Assembly: GCA_019057635.1 (NCBI GenBank)
Contig: DXJL01000101.1
Location: forward strand, 1-46,569
Reading direction: 5' to 3'
Length of the DNA stretch: 46,569 nt
Source of the DNA: Candidatus Heimdallarchaeota archaeon
GTDB taxonomy: Archaea > Asgardarchaeota > Heimdallarchaeia > Hodarchaeales > Hodarchaeaceae
This document shows, piece after piece, positions 14,837 through 41,931 of the stretch. The position numbers were made by a program, and so were the translations under genes. Each line of letters opens with the position of its first letter. Position 1 is the stretch's first letter. The notes beneath the pieces were generated by a model, which was not told where the DNA came from, did not search any database, and saw only the letters and a program-made list of their open reading frames with translations.

Positions 14837-15484
14837 TCAATCTTGGTTTTCTCTAGTTGATTTATGTTCAAGGATTTCTTTGAAAGTTTCTACTAATTGG
14901 AGACGATTCAATGCTAACGTGACGTCTCCACGAGTTCTTTCTGTAAGATTCCGTACAAAATCAGTTTTTTTGCGAAGATTATATGTTAAACTATCTGGAA
15001 AATCAATTGTGAGTAATAAGGTGTATAAATCATCCATCAAATCTAAAGCATTCACCGCAATCTCAATATTATCCTCCTTCCTCAAAGTATCGAGAATAAC
15101 TCTACGTAATTCTCCTACAAAATCTGGAATTCCATGAATATAACCTAAATAAGGAATCTGTAGATCAGTAAAGGTAGGAAAAGGGGTATGGGTCAAAAAA
15201 GATTGAAGGAAAACAGCTTCGGCGTATTCTTGATTACATGATAAAATCATGCCAAAGCGAACCTGTTCCATCTGATTAGACAGTTCATTAATCTCAATAA
15301 TCAACGCTTTGTTTTCCATTATTAATTTGTCAGCTTCTTGGAATTCAGCACGGTGTAAATGCTTTATTGCAATTGATGATTTCTGAATTGCCTTTCGAGA
15401 GAGTATCAAAATTTTTTCACGAACAGAATTAGCTTTGGTTAACTCCTCACTAATTTCTTCAAATATTGTTTGTAATTCTTCCAT
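14837..15484 (-). CDS. Translin/TRAX (C3PO) family protein
   Basis: REKILILSR, QEYAEA, YIHGIPDFVGELRR, LRKKTDFVR. Confidence 0.88.
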   Translation of the reverse strand: MEELQTIFEEISEELTKANSVREKILILSRKAIQKSSIAIKHLHRAEFQEADKLIMENKALIIEINELSNQMEQVRFGMILSCNQEYAEAVFLQSFLTHTPFPTFTDLQIPYLGYIHGIPDFVGELRRVILDTLRKEDNIEIAVNALDLMDDLYTLLLTIDFPDSLTYNLRKKTDFVRNLTERTRGDVTLALNRLQLVETFKEILEHKSTRENQD

Positions 15485-36333: not shown

Positions 36334-39300
36334 CTACTTCTTTTTCTTCTTTTGCTTGCCTTTCTTTCCAGATTCCCCAGTTATTGATCCTAATTCAGAT
36401 AAAGCGTCTGAAAATAAATCTATTAAATCAGGTGGTTTCACTTCAGCTGGTTTTGGAGTTTGTGGTTCAGAGATTTCCTCGTAGGACACTTCTGGAATTC
36501 CAAAGATATCTTGTGTGTCACCAGATTCGTCTTCAACAAGGGCATCCACAACAGAGTCTAAAGAACTGGTTATGTCGGTATCGAACAGACTTTTCGTTTC
36601 TTTAGTTGGTTCTGGTTCGTGTCTAGGAGGTAACACTCTTTCTGTATCTACCAGCGCCATTTCTAATTCTTCAAGGTCAGGTAGACTTTGAAGCTGTTTC
36701 TTCTTCTCACTTTCCAAATCAGGTTCTAATTGAAGCGACTTTAATTGTGTGGGTTTTACTACTTCTTCTTTGGGTTTATAGGATGATTTCAGAGTACTTA
36801 AATCTGGAGTTCCAGACGTAACTTCAACTATAGTAGGAGATATTACTGGTTTAGGTTCACTGATTTTATCTGGTGAAGGAGTAGTTGCTCCTTTTCTTAA
36901 TAAACGCCCAAAAGTATCGACTTCCCACTCTTCCTCACTAGCAGAGGGTTCTTGTTCAGACAGTGATCGTAACACATCAGCTCCCCTCTTTTTGGAATCT
37001 TCTCGAGAGCTAAACAGTGTGGTTACTTCATTATCGGATAGTGTTACACCTTCTTTGCCTTGTTGGCTAACTTCAGGAAATAATTCTTCTTCAACTGATA
37101 ATGATACTTGTGAGACCTCTTCAGGGGAAGGATCAAGTGAAAATAAGCTCGAAACTTCATCATCACTCAGTATGGTGGATACTTCGGCCTCATCCTGTTT
37201 CGGAGGGATTTCCAAAACTTCACTGCTTATTTGCGGTTGCCCTTTTAAAGATGGTTTGTCTTCCAATAACTGAGAGATTTGAGGTTCTGGTTCTTGAATT
37301 ACCTTTGGAGTTTCCACTTGTTCTTGTAGTGGTGATTCTGGTTTGATTCCTTTAATAAAATCGACAATCTCTTTATCTTCTTCTTCGGTATCGGGCTCAA
37401 TGACTTTTTCTAAAAGGGGTTCTTCACTCGCTGTGATTAACTCCGCTGTGTCAACCAAAGTTGGAGTTACTGCGTCAACTTCGATTAATTGTCTGTCCTT
37501 TACTGATTTTGACTTCAAAAAGTTGCTACGTTCTTCTGAAAGGTGTTTAAAGTCCTTTTTAAATTTCTTGGGCTGTATACCCAATTCCTCAATATTATTT
37601 CTAATTTTCTTTGCTTTTTCAGTATCGTTTATGTCAGCAACGTAATTTAACATGAAAACTAGAATTCCACCCATATCCTCTGAACGGTTTATCATATTGG
37701 CTAATTTACTCATATATTCTAGATATCTAGATACAAGATTAAGATTATCGGTTGAAATTGCCACGGTAATTATCTCACAACAATTTCTGAAGAGTTCATC
37801 CAGATCCTCCAATTCTTCCAGTTTTTCTATTGTTTGTTGAAAAGCTGCTAGCACTGAGTCGTCTGAAATAGTGCAAAGGTATTTAGTGAGTAAAACTAGT
37901 AGTTGTGCTTCGTGTTTTTTGGCCTTATATTTACTGCAAATGTATATTCCTCTCTCAAATGTACGAATGGCTCTTTTTGAGGATGAGTATTGAGTTGCGA
38001 GATTATTATAGATAGTAACTACTCCATCAAAATCATTTGCTCCTCGTAGATAATCTGCAGCAAGATAAGCATACTCTGAGGCTAGATCAGGATTCTCAAA
38101 CGCTACCATTTGTGCAAATTTATCACAGACTTTTGCCCCTAGGTGATTTTTCTCTGCAGATAGTTCAGGGTTAGTTGTAATATGTTGAATCAACTTATCT
38201 GCAAACTCTCTTGCTTTTTCAATGTTAGATTTTCGAACTAAACTTTGAACGAAGTCCAGAGATTTATTTAAAAGATCCGAAAATGGTAAACTTGATCTTT
38301 CTGACAATATTGACATTAATTTCATTGCCTCAACAGCAAAACCAAACTCTGTCAATTTATTTGTGTATTTATATACCAAGTTATCTCCTAGATCTACAAG
38401 AGCACTTCCATACACAAGGTTAACTAATGAAATTATACCATCTGCACTGTCAAAGGTTAATGAAGAAGATTCAATTAGTTGATCAAAGAATTTTTCAGAA
38501 TACTTTATGTATTCCTCGAGTGGAGGAGAAAGAACCTCATTCACAACCGTAAGTAGCGCAACATCAGGATATTTTGTTAATAACGGATCAACGACTTTCT
38601 TTGTGATTTTCTTGAAGTCATCTTTCTCGCGATGAATTTCTATTATCTTGCGAAATACTTGAAGAGAAGGCTCTTTGACATTTTTAAAAGTAATATTGAA
38701 AATCTTATGAAGAAATTCAAGTGCTTTATCTGATTTATTGTCTTCCTCAAAGAGAGTTGCGACATTAAGAGCGAATTTGATAGCAGATAAATAGTCTTCG
38801 TTATCTAGAGTAATTTTGGCATATTCTTTTATCGATTGGATAGCGATTTTGTATTGTTGATGAGTTTTACCGAATCTAAATATTAGATCGGTCATTTTAG
38901 CTGCGTCTTCAAACTGGTCAAATTCTAAAAATCTATTTCTCATTTTTCCGAGATATTTGATGACATCAGGAATGCTGCCAGAGCTCTCTATATAACGAGC
39001 ATTTTGGACACTAAAAATGTATGCGTCTTGAAACATGCTCTGTTCTAATTGCCTATCAATGATGTTAGTCACAATTTCTATACATTTCTTATATTCTTCT
39101 TTTGCCTCATATTCTTTTAGTATGATGTCAGTAATTTTTTGTGATAATTCAACTGAATAATCAAGTAGGACTTCTTGATATTTCACCAAGACTTCAAGCG
39201 CTCCTTGATCATCTCCCATCCGTCTATAAGCTTCAGCAATCTCAAAAACGTATTTTTGGACAAGATCAACTCTTTGAGTACTTTCCAAAAGATGGTCAAC

Positions 39301-41931
39301 GAAACGACTTATTGAGTCAATTGCTCTCGTATACTCACTTTGTTTACCTTGGAGGATTACTAGCTGATCCAAGATTGACGCCGCTCTATCAACCTCATTC
39401 GTTGTTAATAGATCTTTTATGAACTTCTGCAGCAAATCATAATCACTATGATCTGACTGTAACATTAAGCTAGAGATGTAACGAATATATTCGAAAATCA
39501 TATCGTTTTGGCCATACTCTCTTAATTTGTCTATAAATTGGCAACAAAATTTAATTACATCCTTTATTTTCTTTGTTTCCAACAACCGAGATAATTCTAA
39601 ATTAATCATCTCTTGAGCGGTAAGAAAAGCATGACTCACATGCATTTCATCAACATATTTCAGAACAATTTTCTCCCTCTTCTTAGGGTCATCAATTGTT
39701 TGAAGAGCGGTCTGAATAAAGGATTTAGCGCGATCTTTCATCCCTAATTTCCCCAGTAAATCGCCCATTGCGAGCTGTTTTTCTATTCGACGAGAATCAT
39801 CATCTTTGTATGCTTTACTAATGAGATCTTCAACAAACTGCAAATAATTTTTTGCCGCCTCTATTTCTTTTAATTCAGTGAGTCCCCTCACTACTCCAAG
39901 GCTAAAATCAACAGCTTCTTCAACCTTTTTCAATTCATAAAAAAGCTTTATTGCTTGATTACTAAGTTCACACGCTTTTACATATGTTTCTGAATTCATA
40001 AGTGCTTTTGAAGCTTCCAATGCGATTTCTAAAGCTTTTTCCTTCTTTCCCTGAGTCTCCAGGGTAAGGATTAATCGATTAACGTATCTTTGATAATGAG
40101 ATTTTTCTTGGATCTCTTTTAATAATTGTGTTGTCTCTTCAAGCGTGCTCAGAATTTCAAAATTAGCTTTACGTTCTTCTTGTACTCCCAGTGCAGAGTC
40201 AACTAAGAAAATAATGTCCTCCAAGAATCCATCTCTTTGCTCCTTTGAGAGTGTGTCCCCACTTGCTCCTATCTCTTTTATGGCAAAGTGGGCATAACGA
40301 AGAGCATTCTCCCACATTACTACTGGGAGTCGAGCATGCTTATAATACTCCGCTTGTTTTTTAGCCAAAAGTAAGATTGTTGATATTGAATCAGGTACTA
40401 TTTTTTCAGACAAGTAGTAATCTAAAACTAAATCACATAAATTCGCTGCATTCAAATGTTTATTTTGATCGGCCAGCATCTCTATAGATTCAAATACGAA
40501 TTCAACAGATGATTCCATATCAATTTTGAGCAGATCTGAGATCAATTCTGATTGAAGCTTCACAACTTTGGAATCTTTTCCTTGATCTATCAGGGATTTC
40601 ACAAGTTTTCTCCCAAATCGTAGGATACCCTTAGAATTGTTTTCTTTACGAAATCGCTTGAGCAAAACTTCAGTGATTTTCGAGGCGGCTTTAAGATTCC
40701 CCTCTGCTTCATTCTGTTCAATAATTTTTAAGAAGTGACCAACAGCCACATTACTGATGATTTGGTCCATTGGCTTTGTTGCTAAATTGCCAATAGTCTG
40801 AAAAATCAATTCTGAAGCATCGTACAAGTAACTAAAAGAGATTTGGGGTATTTCCTGATTTATCAGACGAGCAATTTCATCCTGATCAATTTTTATTCCT
40901 GTAGGGGCGGAAATTGAACCATCAGACTTACGAAAACGTAAAAACCAATCATCAAATTTTCTGAGTACAATACAATCCACTCCACCCGAATGAACAATCT
41001 CCACTTCTTTAACAGGAAGAGGTTGTCCTACTTCTACGACTTCTTTAACCTTGTTGATAAATTTATCAAAATCATCAGCCTTACTGAATTCAGACATGTC
41101 AAAATCGGATAAATCAACAAGTGTCACTTCATCTTGTTTTAAGGTAGTAGCTGATTTTGACTTTAAAATGGGTGAAGGATCATCGACATCAACTATAGTG
41201 TCCATTTGAGGAATTGAAACAGTATCTTCAGATTCAAATTTCTCTGGATTTAAAATTAGTGATTCAATTTGCTCTGCAGAATCATATATTGCAGAAAAGG
41301 AAAGAAAATCAATTCCTGATTCACTGATTAATTCTACAACTTTATCTTGATTTACATCGTCTTTAGAATAGACTTTTCTCTGTAGCAATTCATCATTGCG
41401 AGATAAAACTACAGCAAATTTCCCTTCGGGAGTATAATAAATTGTGGCAAATCCTGATTTCGAGTGCAGCATTTTGATCTTTTTTAGTTCTTTATCTCCA
41501 GGAGGAATTGTCAGAATCCTACTTGATGTTCCTGCGGCTGTATCTTCAACAATCTCATCTCCCTCCTCTAGTACATCTTCAGTTAGTATACCGAACTTTT
41601 CAGTTACATCATTAACATCTCGCGTTATTGGAGTCGAAGCAGGTTCATCTTCTATTGAGAAAGCCTGAAATTCATCCTTAATTGTATTCACAAGTAGATC
41701 AGAGATTTCAAAGATTGCAGAAAAACTAAAAAATTCCACTCCCGCCTCACTCAAGAGATCCACCATCCTATCCTGATTAAGCTTGTTTTGAGAGAGAGAA
41801 GCGGTATTTATTTGTCTATCATTCTGGAAAAAATTCAGTACGTACCGATCTCTGCTTTCTCTAATCTCAACTTCTACCCCAGAAGTAGAGGGAAGCTCTA
41901 TCCGAACCAGTTTTTCGTTTCGGGTTGCCAT
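36334..41931 (-). CDS. 1865-aa protein: three N-terminal ~75-aa repeats, long alpha-solenoid (TPR/SNAP-like), acidic disordered tail
   Basis: Repeated NQD...SFS(A/Y)(I/L)(F/Y)(E/D) motif; ~1100 aa of amphipathic helical pairs; E/P/S-rich last ~390 aa; ends GKKGKQKKKKK. Confidence 0.85.
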   Translation of the reverse strand: MATRNEKLVRIELPSTSGVEVEIRESRDRYVLNFFQNDRQINTASLSQNKLNQDRMVDLLSEAGVEFFSFSAIFEISDLLVNTIKDEFQAFSIEDEPASTPITRDVNDVTEKFGILTEDVLEEGDEIVEDTAAGTSSRILTIPPGDKELKKIKMLHSKSGFATIYYTPEGKFAVVLSRNDELLQRKVYSKDDVNQDKVVELISESGIDFLSFSAIYDSAEQIESLILNPEKFESEDTVSIPQMDTIVDVDDPSPILKSKSATTLKQDEVTLVDLSDFDMSEFSKADDFDKFINKVKEVVEVGQPLPVKEVEIVHSGGVDCIVLRKFDDWFLRFRKSDGSISAPTGIKIDQDEIARLINQEIPQISFSYLYDASELIFQTIGNLATKPMDQIISNVAVGHFLKIIEQNEAEGNLKAASKITEVLLKRFRKENNSKGILRFGRKLVKSLIDQGKDSKVVKLQSELISDLLKIDMESSVEFVFESIEMLADQNKHLNAANLCDLVLDYYLSEKIVPDSISTILLLAKKQAEYYKHARLPVVMWENALRYAHFAIKEIGASGDTLSKEQRDGFLEDIIFLVDSALGVQEERKANFEILSTLEETTQLLKEIQEKSHYQRYVNRLILTLETQGKKEKALEIALEASKALMNSETYVKACELSNQAIKLFYELKKVEEAVDFSLGVVRGLTELKEIEAAKNYLQFVEDLISKAYKDDDSRRIEKQLAMGDLLGKLGMKDRAKSFIQTALQTIDDPKKREKIVLKYVDEMHVSHAFLTAQEMINLELSRLLETKKIKDVIKFCCQFIDKLREYGQNDMIFEYIRYISSLMLQSDHSDYDLLQKFIKDLLTTNEVDRAASILDQLVILQGKQSEYTRAIDSISRFVDHLLESTQRVDLVQKYVFEIAEAYRRMGDDQGALEVLVKYQEVLLDYSVELSQKITDIILKEYEAKEEYKKCIEIVTNIIDRQLEQSMFQDAYIFSVQNARYIESSGSIPDVIKYLGKMRNRFLEFDQFEDAAKMTDLIFRFGKTHQQYKIAIQSIKEYAKITLDNEDYLSAIKFALNVATLFEEDNKSDKALEFLHKIFNITFKNVKEPSLQVFRKIIEIHREKDDFKKITKKVVDPLLTKYPDVALLTVVNEVLSPPLEEYIKYSEKFFDQLIESSSLTFDSADGIISLVNLVYGSALVDLGDNLVYKYTNKLTEFGFAVEAMKLMSILSERSSLPFSDLLNKSLDFVQSLVRKSNIEKAREFADKLIQHITTNPELSAEKNHLGAKVCDKFAQMVAFENPDLASEYAYLAADYLRGANDFDGVVTIYNNLATQYSSSKRAIRTFERGIYICSKYKAKKHEAQLLVLLTKYLCTISDDSVLAAFQQTIEKLEELEDLDELFRNCCEIITVAISTDNLNLVSRYLEYMSKLANMINRSEDMGGILVFMLNYVADINDTEKAKKIRNNIEELGIQPKKFKKDFKHLSEERSNFLKSKSVKDRQLIEVDAVTPTLVDTAELITASEEPLLEKVIEPDTEEEDKEIVDFIKGIKPESPLQEQVETPKVIQEPEPQISQLLEDKPSLKGQPQISSEVLEIPPKQDEAEVSTILSDDEVSSLFSLDPSPEEVSQVSLSVEEELFPEVSQQGKEGVTLSDNEVTTLFSSREDSKKRGADVLRSLSEQEPSASEEEWEVDTFGRLLRKGATTPSPDKISEPKPVISPTIVEVTSGTPDLSTLKSSYKPKEEVVKPTQLKSLQLEPDLESEKKKQLQSLPDLEELEMALVDTERVLPPRHEPEPTKETKSLFDTDITSSLDSVVDALVEDESGDTQDIFGIPEVSYEEISEPQTPKPAEVKPPDLIDLFSDALSELGSITGESGKKGKQKKKKK

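Follow-up and report, generated by a model that had tools for sequence, protein, structure and literature searches.

In eukaryotes, giant α-solenoids with motif-bearing disordered tails wire up the trafficking, transport, and RNA machinery, an arrangement that is uncommon in prokaryotes. The canonical tetratricopeptide repeat (TPR) forms helical hairpins with a period of 34 residues, α-SNAP is a protein of ~290 residues with a C-terminal globular bundle, and the C-terminal tails of Ctr9-type proteins are likewise charged and disordered. In Asgard archaea, passages of one report (10.64898/2026.10.28.762692) link α-solenoid clusters to Integrator, condensin, and HOPS/CORVET, and describe a Thorarchaeia cluster with a true propeller-solenoid order, which belongs to a different family from the one analyzed here. 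Here we describe a giant gene in a 46,569-nucleotide stretch of DNA (hereafter the window) from Candidatus Heimdallarchaeota archaeon (order Hodarchaeales; assembly GCA_019057635.1, contig DXJL01000101.1). The gene (36334..41931, minus strand) is an intact coding sequence with an ATG start and encodes 1865 residues followed by a stop codon (P0001; hereafter the giant protein).

The giant protein combines an N-terminal array of three modules (two to six in relatives), a rigid superhelix of ~1100 residues, a fast-evolving acidic tail of ~390 residues, an amphipathic helix, and a Lys cluster. We tentatively favor, at somewhat less than even confidence, a soluble cytoplasmic protein that acts as a multivalent scaffold or tether and is docked via its terminal helix and Lys cluster.

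Modules, solenoid, and conservation of the giant protein

Three copies of a module of ~85 residues (hereafter N-module) were delineated by repeat alignment, structure prediction, and a repeat hidden Markov model (HMM) at residues 5‒89 (41665..41919), 145‒231 (41239..41499), and 303‒384 (40780..41025); these and all other features of the gene are on the minus strand. The copies share 22‒29% mutual identity and an invariant S-F-S core. In the AlphaFold2 (AF2) model of residues 1‒400, which was built on a 39-row family alignment and has an overall predicted local distance difference test score (pLDDT) of 72, every copy consists of four β-strands followed by two helices with a block pLDDT of ~80‒91. 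The third copy is continuous with the solenoid. According to the repeat HMM, all 41 close relatives (P0001‒P0041) have three copies and distant relatives two to six, always arrayed at the N-terminus. The sequence-only reading, an earlier annotation made from the DNA letters, had proposed repeated globular N-terminal domains within a layout of domains, solenoid, and tail, and both the domains and the layout were recovered.

Two linkers separate the copies, with a pooled family conservation of 0.34. Linker 1 (residues 90‒144, 41500..41664) is acidic (net charge −11) and predicted to be disordered, with pLDDT below 50 at residues 91‒139. In linker 2 (residues 232‒302, 41026..41238), a predicted disordered part (residues 234‒269, pLDDT below 50) gives way to an acidic-aromatic stretch that is conserved and to a helix (residues 285‒301); the invariant residues of this linker are Asp278, Ser280, Asp287, Asp289, and Phe291.

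The N-module appears private to this family. A profile of 18 copies (alignment A5) gave 54 matches in longer proteins, all within its own family, and nothing below an E-value of 0.19 among PDB sequences. Foldseek comparison of the N-terminal three-domain model with the PDB gave 0 matches at E ≤0.001. The weak, non-significant leads were PUR-alpha, MRP1/2, the polo-box, and the IQGAP RGC domain; those to PUR-alpha and MRP1/2 had E-values of 0.03‒0.07, probabilities of 0.4‒0.6, and template modeling (TM) scores of 0.24‒0.27 on the target, with the three-domain model as the query. Ten matches at E ≤0.001 in BFVD, to uncharacterised or nameless proteins (query TM-score ≤0.15, target TM-score ≤0.27), were rejected as noise from a flexible three-domain query. 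The ESM Atlas contained no usable match to residues 1‒95. No WD40 or propeller family reached its cut-off in P0001, the sole trace being a 12-bit match inside the solenoid. As modeled, the N-module is clearly not a β-propeller and matches no known fold.

The helical repeats, which the sequence-only reading had placed at residues ~385‒1475, are present with slightly shifted bounds, residues 388‒1479 (1092 residues, 37495..40770). The AF2 model of residues 380‒1480 has a mean pLDDT of 86.5 and contains 54 helices of 17.1 ± 2.5 residues, which make up 84% of the solenoid and pair into ~27 hairpins with a period of 40.2 ± 3.5 residues. At least 500 PDB chains matched this model by Foldseek at E ≤0.001. 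The leader was a chain of the Ski2-3-8 complex (4buj_B, E = 1.6e-11), followed by IFT-A (ranks 2, 3, and 6), SKI, and Paf1/Ctr9 chains, and the Ski2-3-8, IFT-A, and Paf1/Ctr9 matches together span E-values of 1e-11 to 1e-8; spliceosomal helical-repeat subunits and separase were also matched, and the clathrin D6 coat (1xi4_A) stood at rank 19. Structure prediction followed by Foldseek, the check that had been suggested earlier, led to generic long TPR scaffolds for the solenoid and to no significant PDB match for the N-modules.

Family models agree only in part with the resemblance to SNAP and TPR repeats that had been noted from the letters. The best match of P0001 is TPR_14 with 17.8 bits against a cut-off of 23.5, and four TPR models are sub-threshold. 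SNAP (PF14938) did not match P0001 at E-values up to 1, but it exceeded its cut-off in three of the 24 scanned relatives (P0051, P0055, and P0059; 38.6‒42.8 bits vs 25), all of them distant, with local matches to ~54‒160 of 282 model positions. Among the same 24 relatives, HEAT_Nup120 passed only in the orthologue P0005 (30.2 bits vs 29), TPR_MalT was sub-threshold in P0017 and P0062, and TPR_12 and ELP1-TPR were sub-threshold in others. The resemblance is therefore real but weak. Compared with canonical TPRs, the period is longer and the best model sub-threshold, while the predicted fold is TPR-like by Foldseek; the giant protein is a TPR protein at the level of the modeled fold only. We describe the solenoid, as modeled, as a TPR-like superhelix of the SNAP/MalT type, with a 40-residue period and without a specific relative.

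No Pfam or NCBIfam model matched P0001 above its cut-off, and no catalytic or NTPase family was found anywhere in the protein by these scans. A profile search of PDB sequences with the whole-family alignment (A2) gave nothing below an E-value of 0.19. The whole protein retrieved archaeal SNAP/TPR clusters from the ESM Atlas with scores of 0.80‒0.81, which lie below the meaningful level and serve as leads only. As expected from the sequence-only reading, there is no transmembrane segment (maximum 19-residue Kyte-Doolittle mean of 1.39). The three parts of the protein have net charges of −34, −22, and −46.

Among 5.8 billion clusters, a word-indexed search retrieved P0001 and 46 homologues that are 46‒84% identical to it. 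Full-length conservation is evident, since 39 of the 47 proteins measure 1806‒1941 residues and the others either bear a partial flag or come from short contigs. With residues 1‒1200 as the query, an exhaustive phmmer scan found only 34 proteins at E ≤0.001 among 1.84 billion representatives, including distant giants of 1376‒2317 residues with 24‒27% identity to P0001. The named sources are all Asgard metagenome-assembled genomes, mostly labeled Hodarchaeales/Hodarchaeota or Heimdallarchaeota and including the LC_3 protein OLS27512.1; a few members carry unconfirmed Thor-, Hermod-, Loki-, or Promethearchaeota labels. Eleven loci were found with one genome per GTDB species, and that of B3_Heim (L002) shares 95% identity with the window. 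At least four deep clades appear in a quick tree of 22 members, and no locus-tag prefix among the named members is common to two of them, so the clades may perhaps be orthologues in different genera and not paralogues. The GC content of the gene (0.34‒0.37) is the same as in the remaining window. The DNA contains two trivial tandem repeats and none further, which indicates that the protein repeats are old.

Literature searches on Asgard and Hodarchaeales solenoids, TPRs, protocoatomers, Foldseek and clathrin, and linear motifs returned no mention of the family, and neither the locus tag nor the accession of the LC_3 protein retrieved a paper. Hodarchaeales has 0 occurrences in the main text of 10.64898/2026.10.28.762692, whose clusters may still include the family. 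The family, an Asgard one as the sequence-only reading had supposed, is undescribed in the literature and in curated family databases, as had also been supposed. It apparently occupies a single locus and is conserved and lineage-specific to Asgard archaea, mostly Hodarchaeales.

Short motifs under purifying selection in the acidic tail

The acidic tail (residues 1476‒1865; 36337..37494 from residue 1480) has a net charge of −46, a pI of 4.3, and contents of 22.8% Asp and Glu, 9.2% Pro, and 18.5% Ser and Thr. By charge-hydropathy analysis, 13 of its 14 50-residue segments lie on the disordered side of the boundary, as would be expected for the disordered tail of ~390 residues that had been read from the letters. 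Outside short islands, the tail is gap-rich and poorly conserved across the family. Mean family conservation is 0.76 for the N-modules, 0.70 for the solenoid, and 0.48 for the tail; within the tail, the motif islands reach 0.85 vs 0.44 in the rest. The ratio of nonsynonymous to synonymous substitution rates (dN/dS) against L002 is 0.069 in the motifs (70 codons) and 0.422 in the tail spacers (304 codons), compared with 0.125 in the solenoid and 0.097 in the N-domains. The comparison with L001 was set aside owing to saturation (dS >2). By these substitution patterns, purifying selection constrains at least five short motifs as strongly as it does the folded parts, which marks the tail as functional.

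L-S-D-x-E-x-x-S-L-F occurs twice in the giant protein (residues 1588‒1597, 37141..37170; residues 1631‒1640, 37012..37041); among 39 orthologues, 29 have two copies, nine have one, and one has none. The motif E-W-E-V-D-x-F-G-R-L (residues 1668‒1679, 36895..36930) has a conservation of 0.89, and its W-x-V-D-x-F-G-R-L form is present in all 39 orthologues. T-P-D-L-S is a further recurrent motif. In D-I-F-x-x-P-E-V-x-Y-E-E-I (residues 1808‒1820, 36472..36510), the conserved island spans residues 1811‒1818, with Pro1813, Val1815, and Tyr1817 invariant.

The tail closes with an amphipathic helix motif, P-P-D-L-x-D-L-F-S-D-A-L-S-E-L-G (residues 1833‒1853, 36373..36435; conservation 0.89), and a Lys-rich end (residues 1855‒1865, 36337..36369). 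The helix has a peak hydrophobic moment of 0.55 and an acidic polar face. Of the 39 orthologues, 38 have its F-x-x-A-L-x-x-L core, which is also kept in seven relatives at 24‒27% identity. In five of these relatives (P0051, P0052, P0053, P0057, and P0089), the core lies near the C-terminus with a Lys/Arg cluster after it in every case; in P0050 and P0059, it is internal with another segment after it. Judging from its distribution, this helix is the oldest element of the tail. The polybasic end named in the sequence-only reading is borne out: the last 12 residues have a net charge of +8, and at least six Lys or Arg residues occur there in 34 of the 39 orthologues, with a minimum of five.

P0074, a protein of 425 residues on a 4121-nucleotide contig, consists of two N-modules and an acidic tail without a solenoid, and its tail bears the motifs L-S-D-E-E-x-x-x-L-F and F-S-D-x-L-S-x-L. 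Since P0074 has both elements without the solenoid, the N-modules and tail motifs seem to be functionally tied independently of it. A search for the C-terminal 66 residues in other, longer proteins gave 17 matches, all of them family members or fragments; because these lie only in its own family, this segment is not a shared targeting signal at the sensitivity of the search.

Several look-alikes of the tail motifs were considered, namely an Atg8/ubiquitin-like-binding motif with F-G-R-L or Y-E-E-I as its core (W-x-x-L consensus: PMC10183829), a WH2-like helix with a basic patch, and an ESCRT MIM-like helix. None was adopted, since patterns this short find matches by chance.

Gene neighborhood and the remaining window

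A PepT gene lies upstream on the same strand at a distance of 149 bp (536 bits, NCBIfam PepT subfamily); an AIM24-family gene, a HAD hydrolase, and an MFS transporter are found farther out. On the downstream side, a convergent GcvT gene follows after a 3-bp gap, and then SHMT. Ten full loci were compared: nine have PepT within 10 kb upstream (directly adjacent in four), nine have a convergent and adjacent GcvT, and nine have SHMT next. We rejected this neighborhood as a functional clue, since its genes are housekeeping ones and the block is generally syntenic. Synteny is broken downstream in the closed chromosome of L004 (15605‒25442) and upstream in that of L007 (1‒10000), and both keep the giant gene, which is thus retained independently of its neighbors. 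The giant protein and five neighbors did not match any PADLOC defence model.

Between 29575 and 33623, four genes without a Pfam or NCBIfam family (29575‒30381, 31054‒32085, 32131‒33189, and 33297‒33623) surround a stand-alone V-ATPase-E/SctL-like coiled-coil protein (30393‒31016). All five are kept in order in seven of ten loci, and L010 keeps the four unassigned genes and not the E-like gene; the block may be an uncharacterised conserved module. It is preceded by a gene for a 298-residue protein with a eukaryote-type JAB1/MPN domain (28674‒29570, plus strand; PF01398, 53.6 bits), which adjoins a TrmI/GCD14-like methyltransferase and two small unassigned open reading frames (ORFs). Glycine-cleavage genes are scattered over the window (8709‒9191, 11816‒14798, 22109‒22498, and 33655‒36330; two GcvH, a split GcvP, GcvT, and SHMT). 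A Ras-family small GTPase of 187 residues (10164‒10727, plus strand; Pfam Ras, 157 bits, with matches also to the Roc and Arf models), of a kind typical of Asgard genomes, adjoins a 211-residue ORF without a family match (10933‒11568). The minus strand carries an IS605 OrfB/TnpB-like transposase-associated gene (5778‒6731; PF01385, 74 bits) and, at 14837‒15484 and 15656‒16298, a translin-family protein (34 bits) with V-ATPase F and a weak V-ATPase G-like ORF next in order.

A putative scaffold among known systems

In the multivalent scaffold or tether that we favor, the solenoid and N-modules would provide docking surfaces, and the tail, as a flexible line, would display short linear motifs for partner proteins. 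Docking of the assembly would fall to the terminal helix and Lys cluster, on a partner or on an anionic surface, either membrane lipid or nucleic acid; the Lys tip fits both. The protein would then be a multivalent tether or hub, and not an enzyme, a transporter, or a cage-forming coat.

Several observations weigh against this model. The analysis yielded no binding partner for the putative scaffold, and the conserved neighbors PepT, GcvT, and SHMT give no functional hint. The likeness of the solenoid to known scaffolds is at the level of repeats and not of overall shape, because TM-scores are only 0.06‒0.26 (typically 0.11‒0.17) with root mean square deviations (RMSDs) of 20‒59 Å. We infer the disorder of the tail from its composition and conservation. 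An association with membranes would follow only from the Lys-rich end, and the acidic polar face of the terminal helix argues against direct insertion in anionic membranes; together with its strict conservation, this face fits a protein partner better than a bilayer. Moreover, the Lys cluster is not universal, since five of the 39 orthologues have only five Lys or Arg residues in the last 12, two of these orthologues ending in K-K-K-D-E-D, and the group of P0050, P0055, and P0059 has a further C-terminal segment in place of the Lys end.

The Foldseek matches to the solenoid bear on two other explanations. Their top, with Ski2-3-8 (4buj_B), human SKI, Ctr9/Paf1, and spliceosomal helical-repeat subunits, would suit a scaffold of an RNA- or DNA-associated machine, Ski- or Paf1-like, whose Lys end and possibly N-modules contact nucleic acid. 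Lys clusters commonly contact nucleic acid, and PUR-alpha and MRP1/2 repeats, among the weak matches of the N-terminal model, likewise have four strands and then a helix. In addition, part of one paper reports that Lys/Arg-rich disordered regions in Hodarchaeales capture DNA (PMC12747264). However, the PUR and MRP matches are non-significant (0 at E 0.001), and the match list is biased, as long TPR chains in the PDB come mostly from such eukaryotic complexes. In addition, the protein as a whole is strongly acidic, and no RNA-processing neighbor is conserved. We regard this explanation as unlikely, though worth keeping in mind. The same list contains the clathrin heavy chain and IFT-A chains, which are the structural points for a protocoatomer-like coat or vesicle tether, with the solenoid as a leg, recruitment by the Lys end, and tail motifs as adaptor-binding boxes. 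Eukaryotic coat accessory proteins do combine a long α-solenoid with a disordered motif-bearing tail, P0005 scores marginally above the HEAT_Nup120 cut-off, and the Lys cluster could bind anionic lipid. The niche also seems open in Asgard archaea, because no functional coat has been identified there according to a statement in PMC11914678. Against this, the N-terminal part is not a β-propeller and comprises three small modules of four strands and two helices, strung on disordered linkers; P0001 had no match to a Clathrin, COP, Sec31, nucleoporin, or Vps family at E-values up to 1, and RNA-processing and transcription scaffolds match equally well or better. No trafficking gene is adjacent, and the only small GTPase in the window is 26 kb away. 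The assignment to coats and tethers in the sequence-only reading was consequently not supported, with clathrin at rank 19 only and PepT, GcvT, and SHMT as the neighbors, and we consider a protocoatomer-like coat or vesicle tether very improbable. A related idea, namely that Hodarchaeales invented a eukaryote-style scaffold at the cell membrane, a Lys-end-docked tether or proto-coat whose disordered tail recruits partners by its linear motifs and which is possibly controlled by the small GTPases of these archaea, seems to us improbable, if slightly less so.

Two further explanations concern the repeated parts themselves. The tail motifs may bind the N-modules or solenoid of their own protein, giving an auto-inhibited closed form or head-to-tail polymers. 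N-modules co-occur with L-S-D-x-E-x-x-L-F or F-x-x-A-L-x-x-L in all deep branches, as well as in the solenoid-less P0074, and both modules and motifs are repeated, which would allow multivalency. On the other hand, the number of N-modules (two to six) does not visibly track the number of recognisable tail motifs. The sole pairing submitted to complex prediction (residues 1‒930 with residues 1800‒1865) scored 0.11 and 0.09, where the mark is 0.32, and counts neither way. We consider self-interaction doubtful, about on a par with the invented membrane scaffold. The hairpin period of ~40 residues and the sub-threshold TPR_MalT matches in P0017 and P0062 recall MalT-type super-helical repeats, and some members are labeled 'tetratricopeptide repeat protein' by NCBI, so an ordinary prokaryotic TPR protein of unrelated function, such as the sensor arm of a STAND or defence system or a MalT-like regulator, was also weighed. 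However, Pfam and NCBIfam scans found no NTPase, effector, or DNA-binding domain, and PADLOC matched neither the protein nor its five neighbors; with nothing above cut-off in these three resources, the known prokaryotic TPR family of unrelated function that the sequence-only reading had named as its own refutation did not turn up. The stable single-locus synteny with housekeeping genes in nine of ten loci is unlike defence islands, and the GC content is like that of the remaining window. This last explanation is the most remote of those considered.

The family offers a concrete, clonable handle on large interaction hubs in Hodarchaeales cells. Its novelty lies in the private N-terminal module and the motif-bearing tail, as the TPR-like scaffold is itself a known kind. 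If its partners are GTPases, ESCRT, cytoskeletal, or membrane components, the family would bear on cellular complexity before eukaryotes; if they are ordinary, it is still a useful new domain family. A membrane tether or proto-coat, if true, would make it a candidate for the missing membrane-remodeling scaffold of Asgard archaea, independent of propeller-solenoid coats.

Among known systems, protocoatomers likewise have a globular N-terminal part followed by an α-solenoid. The giant protein has the C-terminal α-solenoid, with its 54 helices, but not the N-terminal β-propeller, and it matches no protocoatomer family model. Compared with STAND/MalT-like proteins or defence sensors, it has neither a fused or adjacent NTPase or effector nor a defence-model match. 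SNAP/TPR-like archaeal proteins are approached by the three distant relatives that pass the SNAP model locally, and not by P0001; in comparison with α-SNAP, the giant protein is six times longer and bears other appendages.

The docking logic of the tail recalls systems based on terminal peptides. In FtsZ, the C-terminal peptide lies behind a disordered linker. Encapsulation peptides of microcompartments are short terminal amphipathic helices, according to part of PMC12747264. Both resemble the giant protein in a long, variable disordered linker, a conserved amphipathic helix, and basic residues, but the analogy is one of logic only, as there is no sequence relation and no microcompartment or division locus. 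We rejected a link to microcompartments, since the main text of PMC12747264 contains neither TPR nor tetratricopeptide and the gene lies outside such an operon.

The closest counterparts are the long TPR chains of Ski2-3-8 (4buj_B, presumably Ski3), IFT-A (8fgw_D, 1315 residues, which we take to be TTC21B/IFT139), and Ctr9/Paf1 (7dkh_A). These chains, with the best Foldseek E-values of 1.6e-11 to 5e-9, likewise wind more than 1000 residues of uninterrupted helical hairpins into a superhelix and likewise have no catalytic domain. They differ in shape, with TM-scores of 0.11‒0.16 and RMSDs above 30 Å, have no relation to the giant protein at the sequence level, and are without its N-terminal module array. 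By analogy, the giant protein would work in the manner of such long TPR scaffolds from eukaryotic complexes while being a member of none of them.

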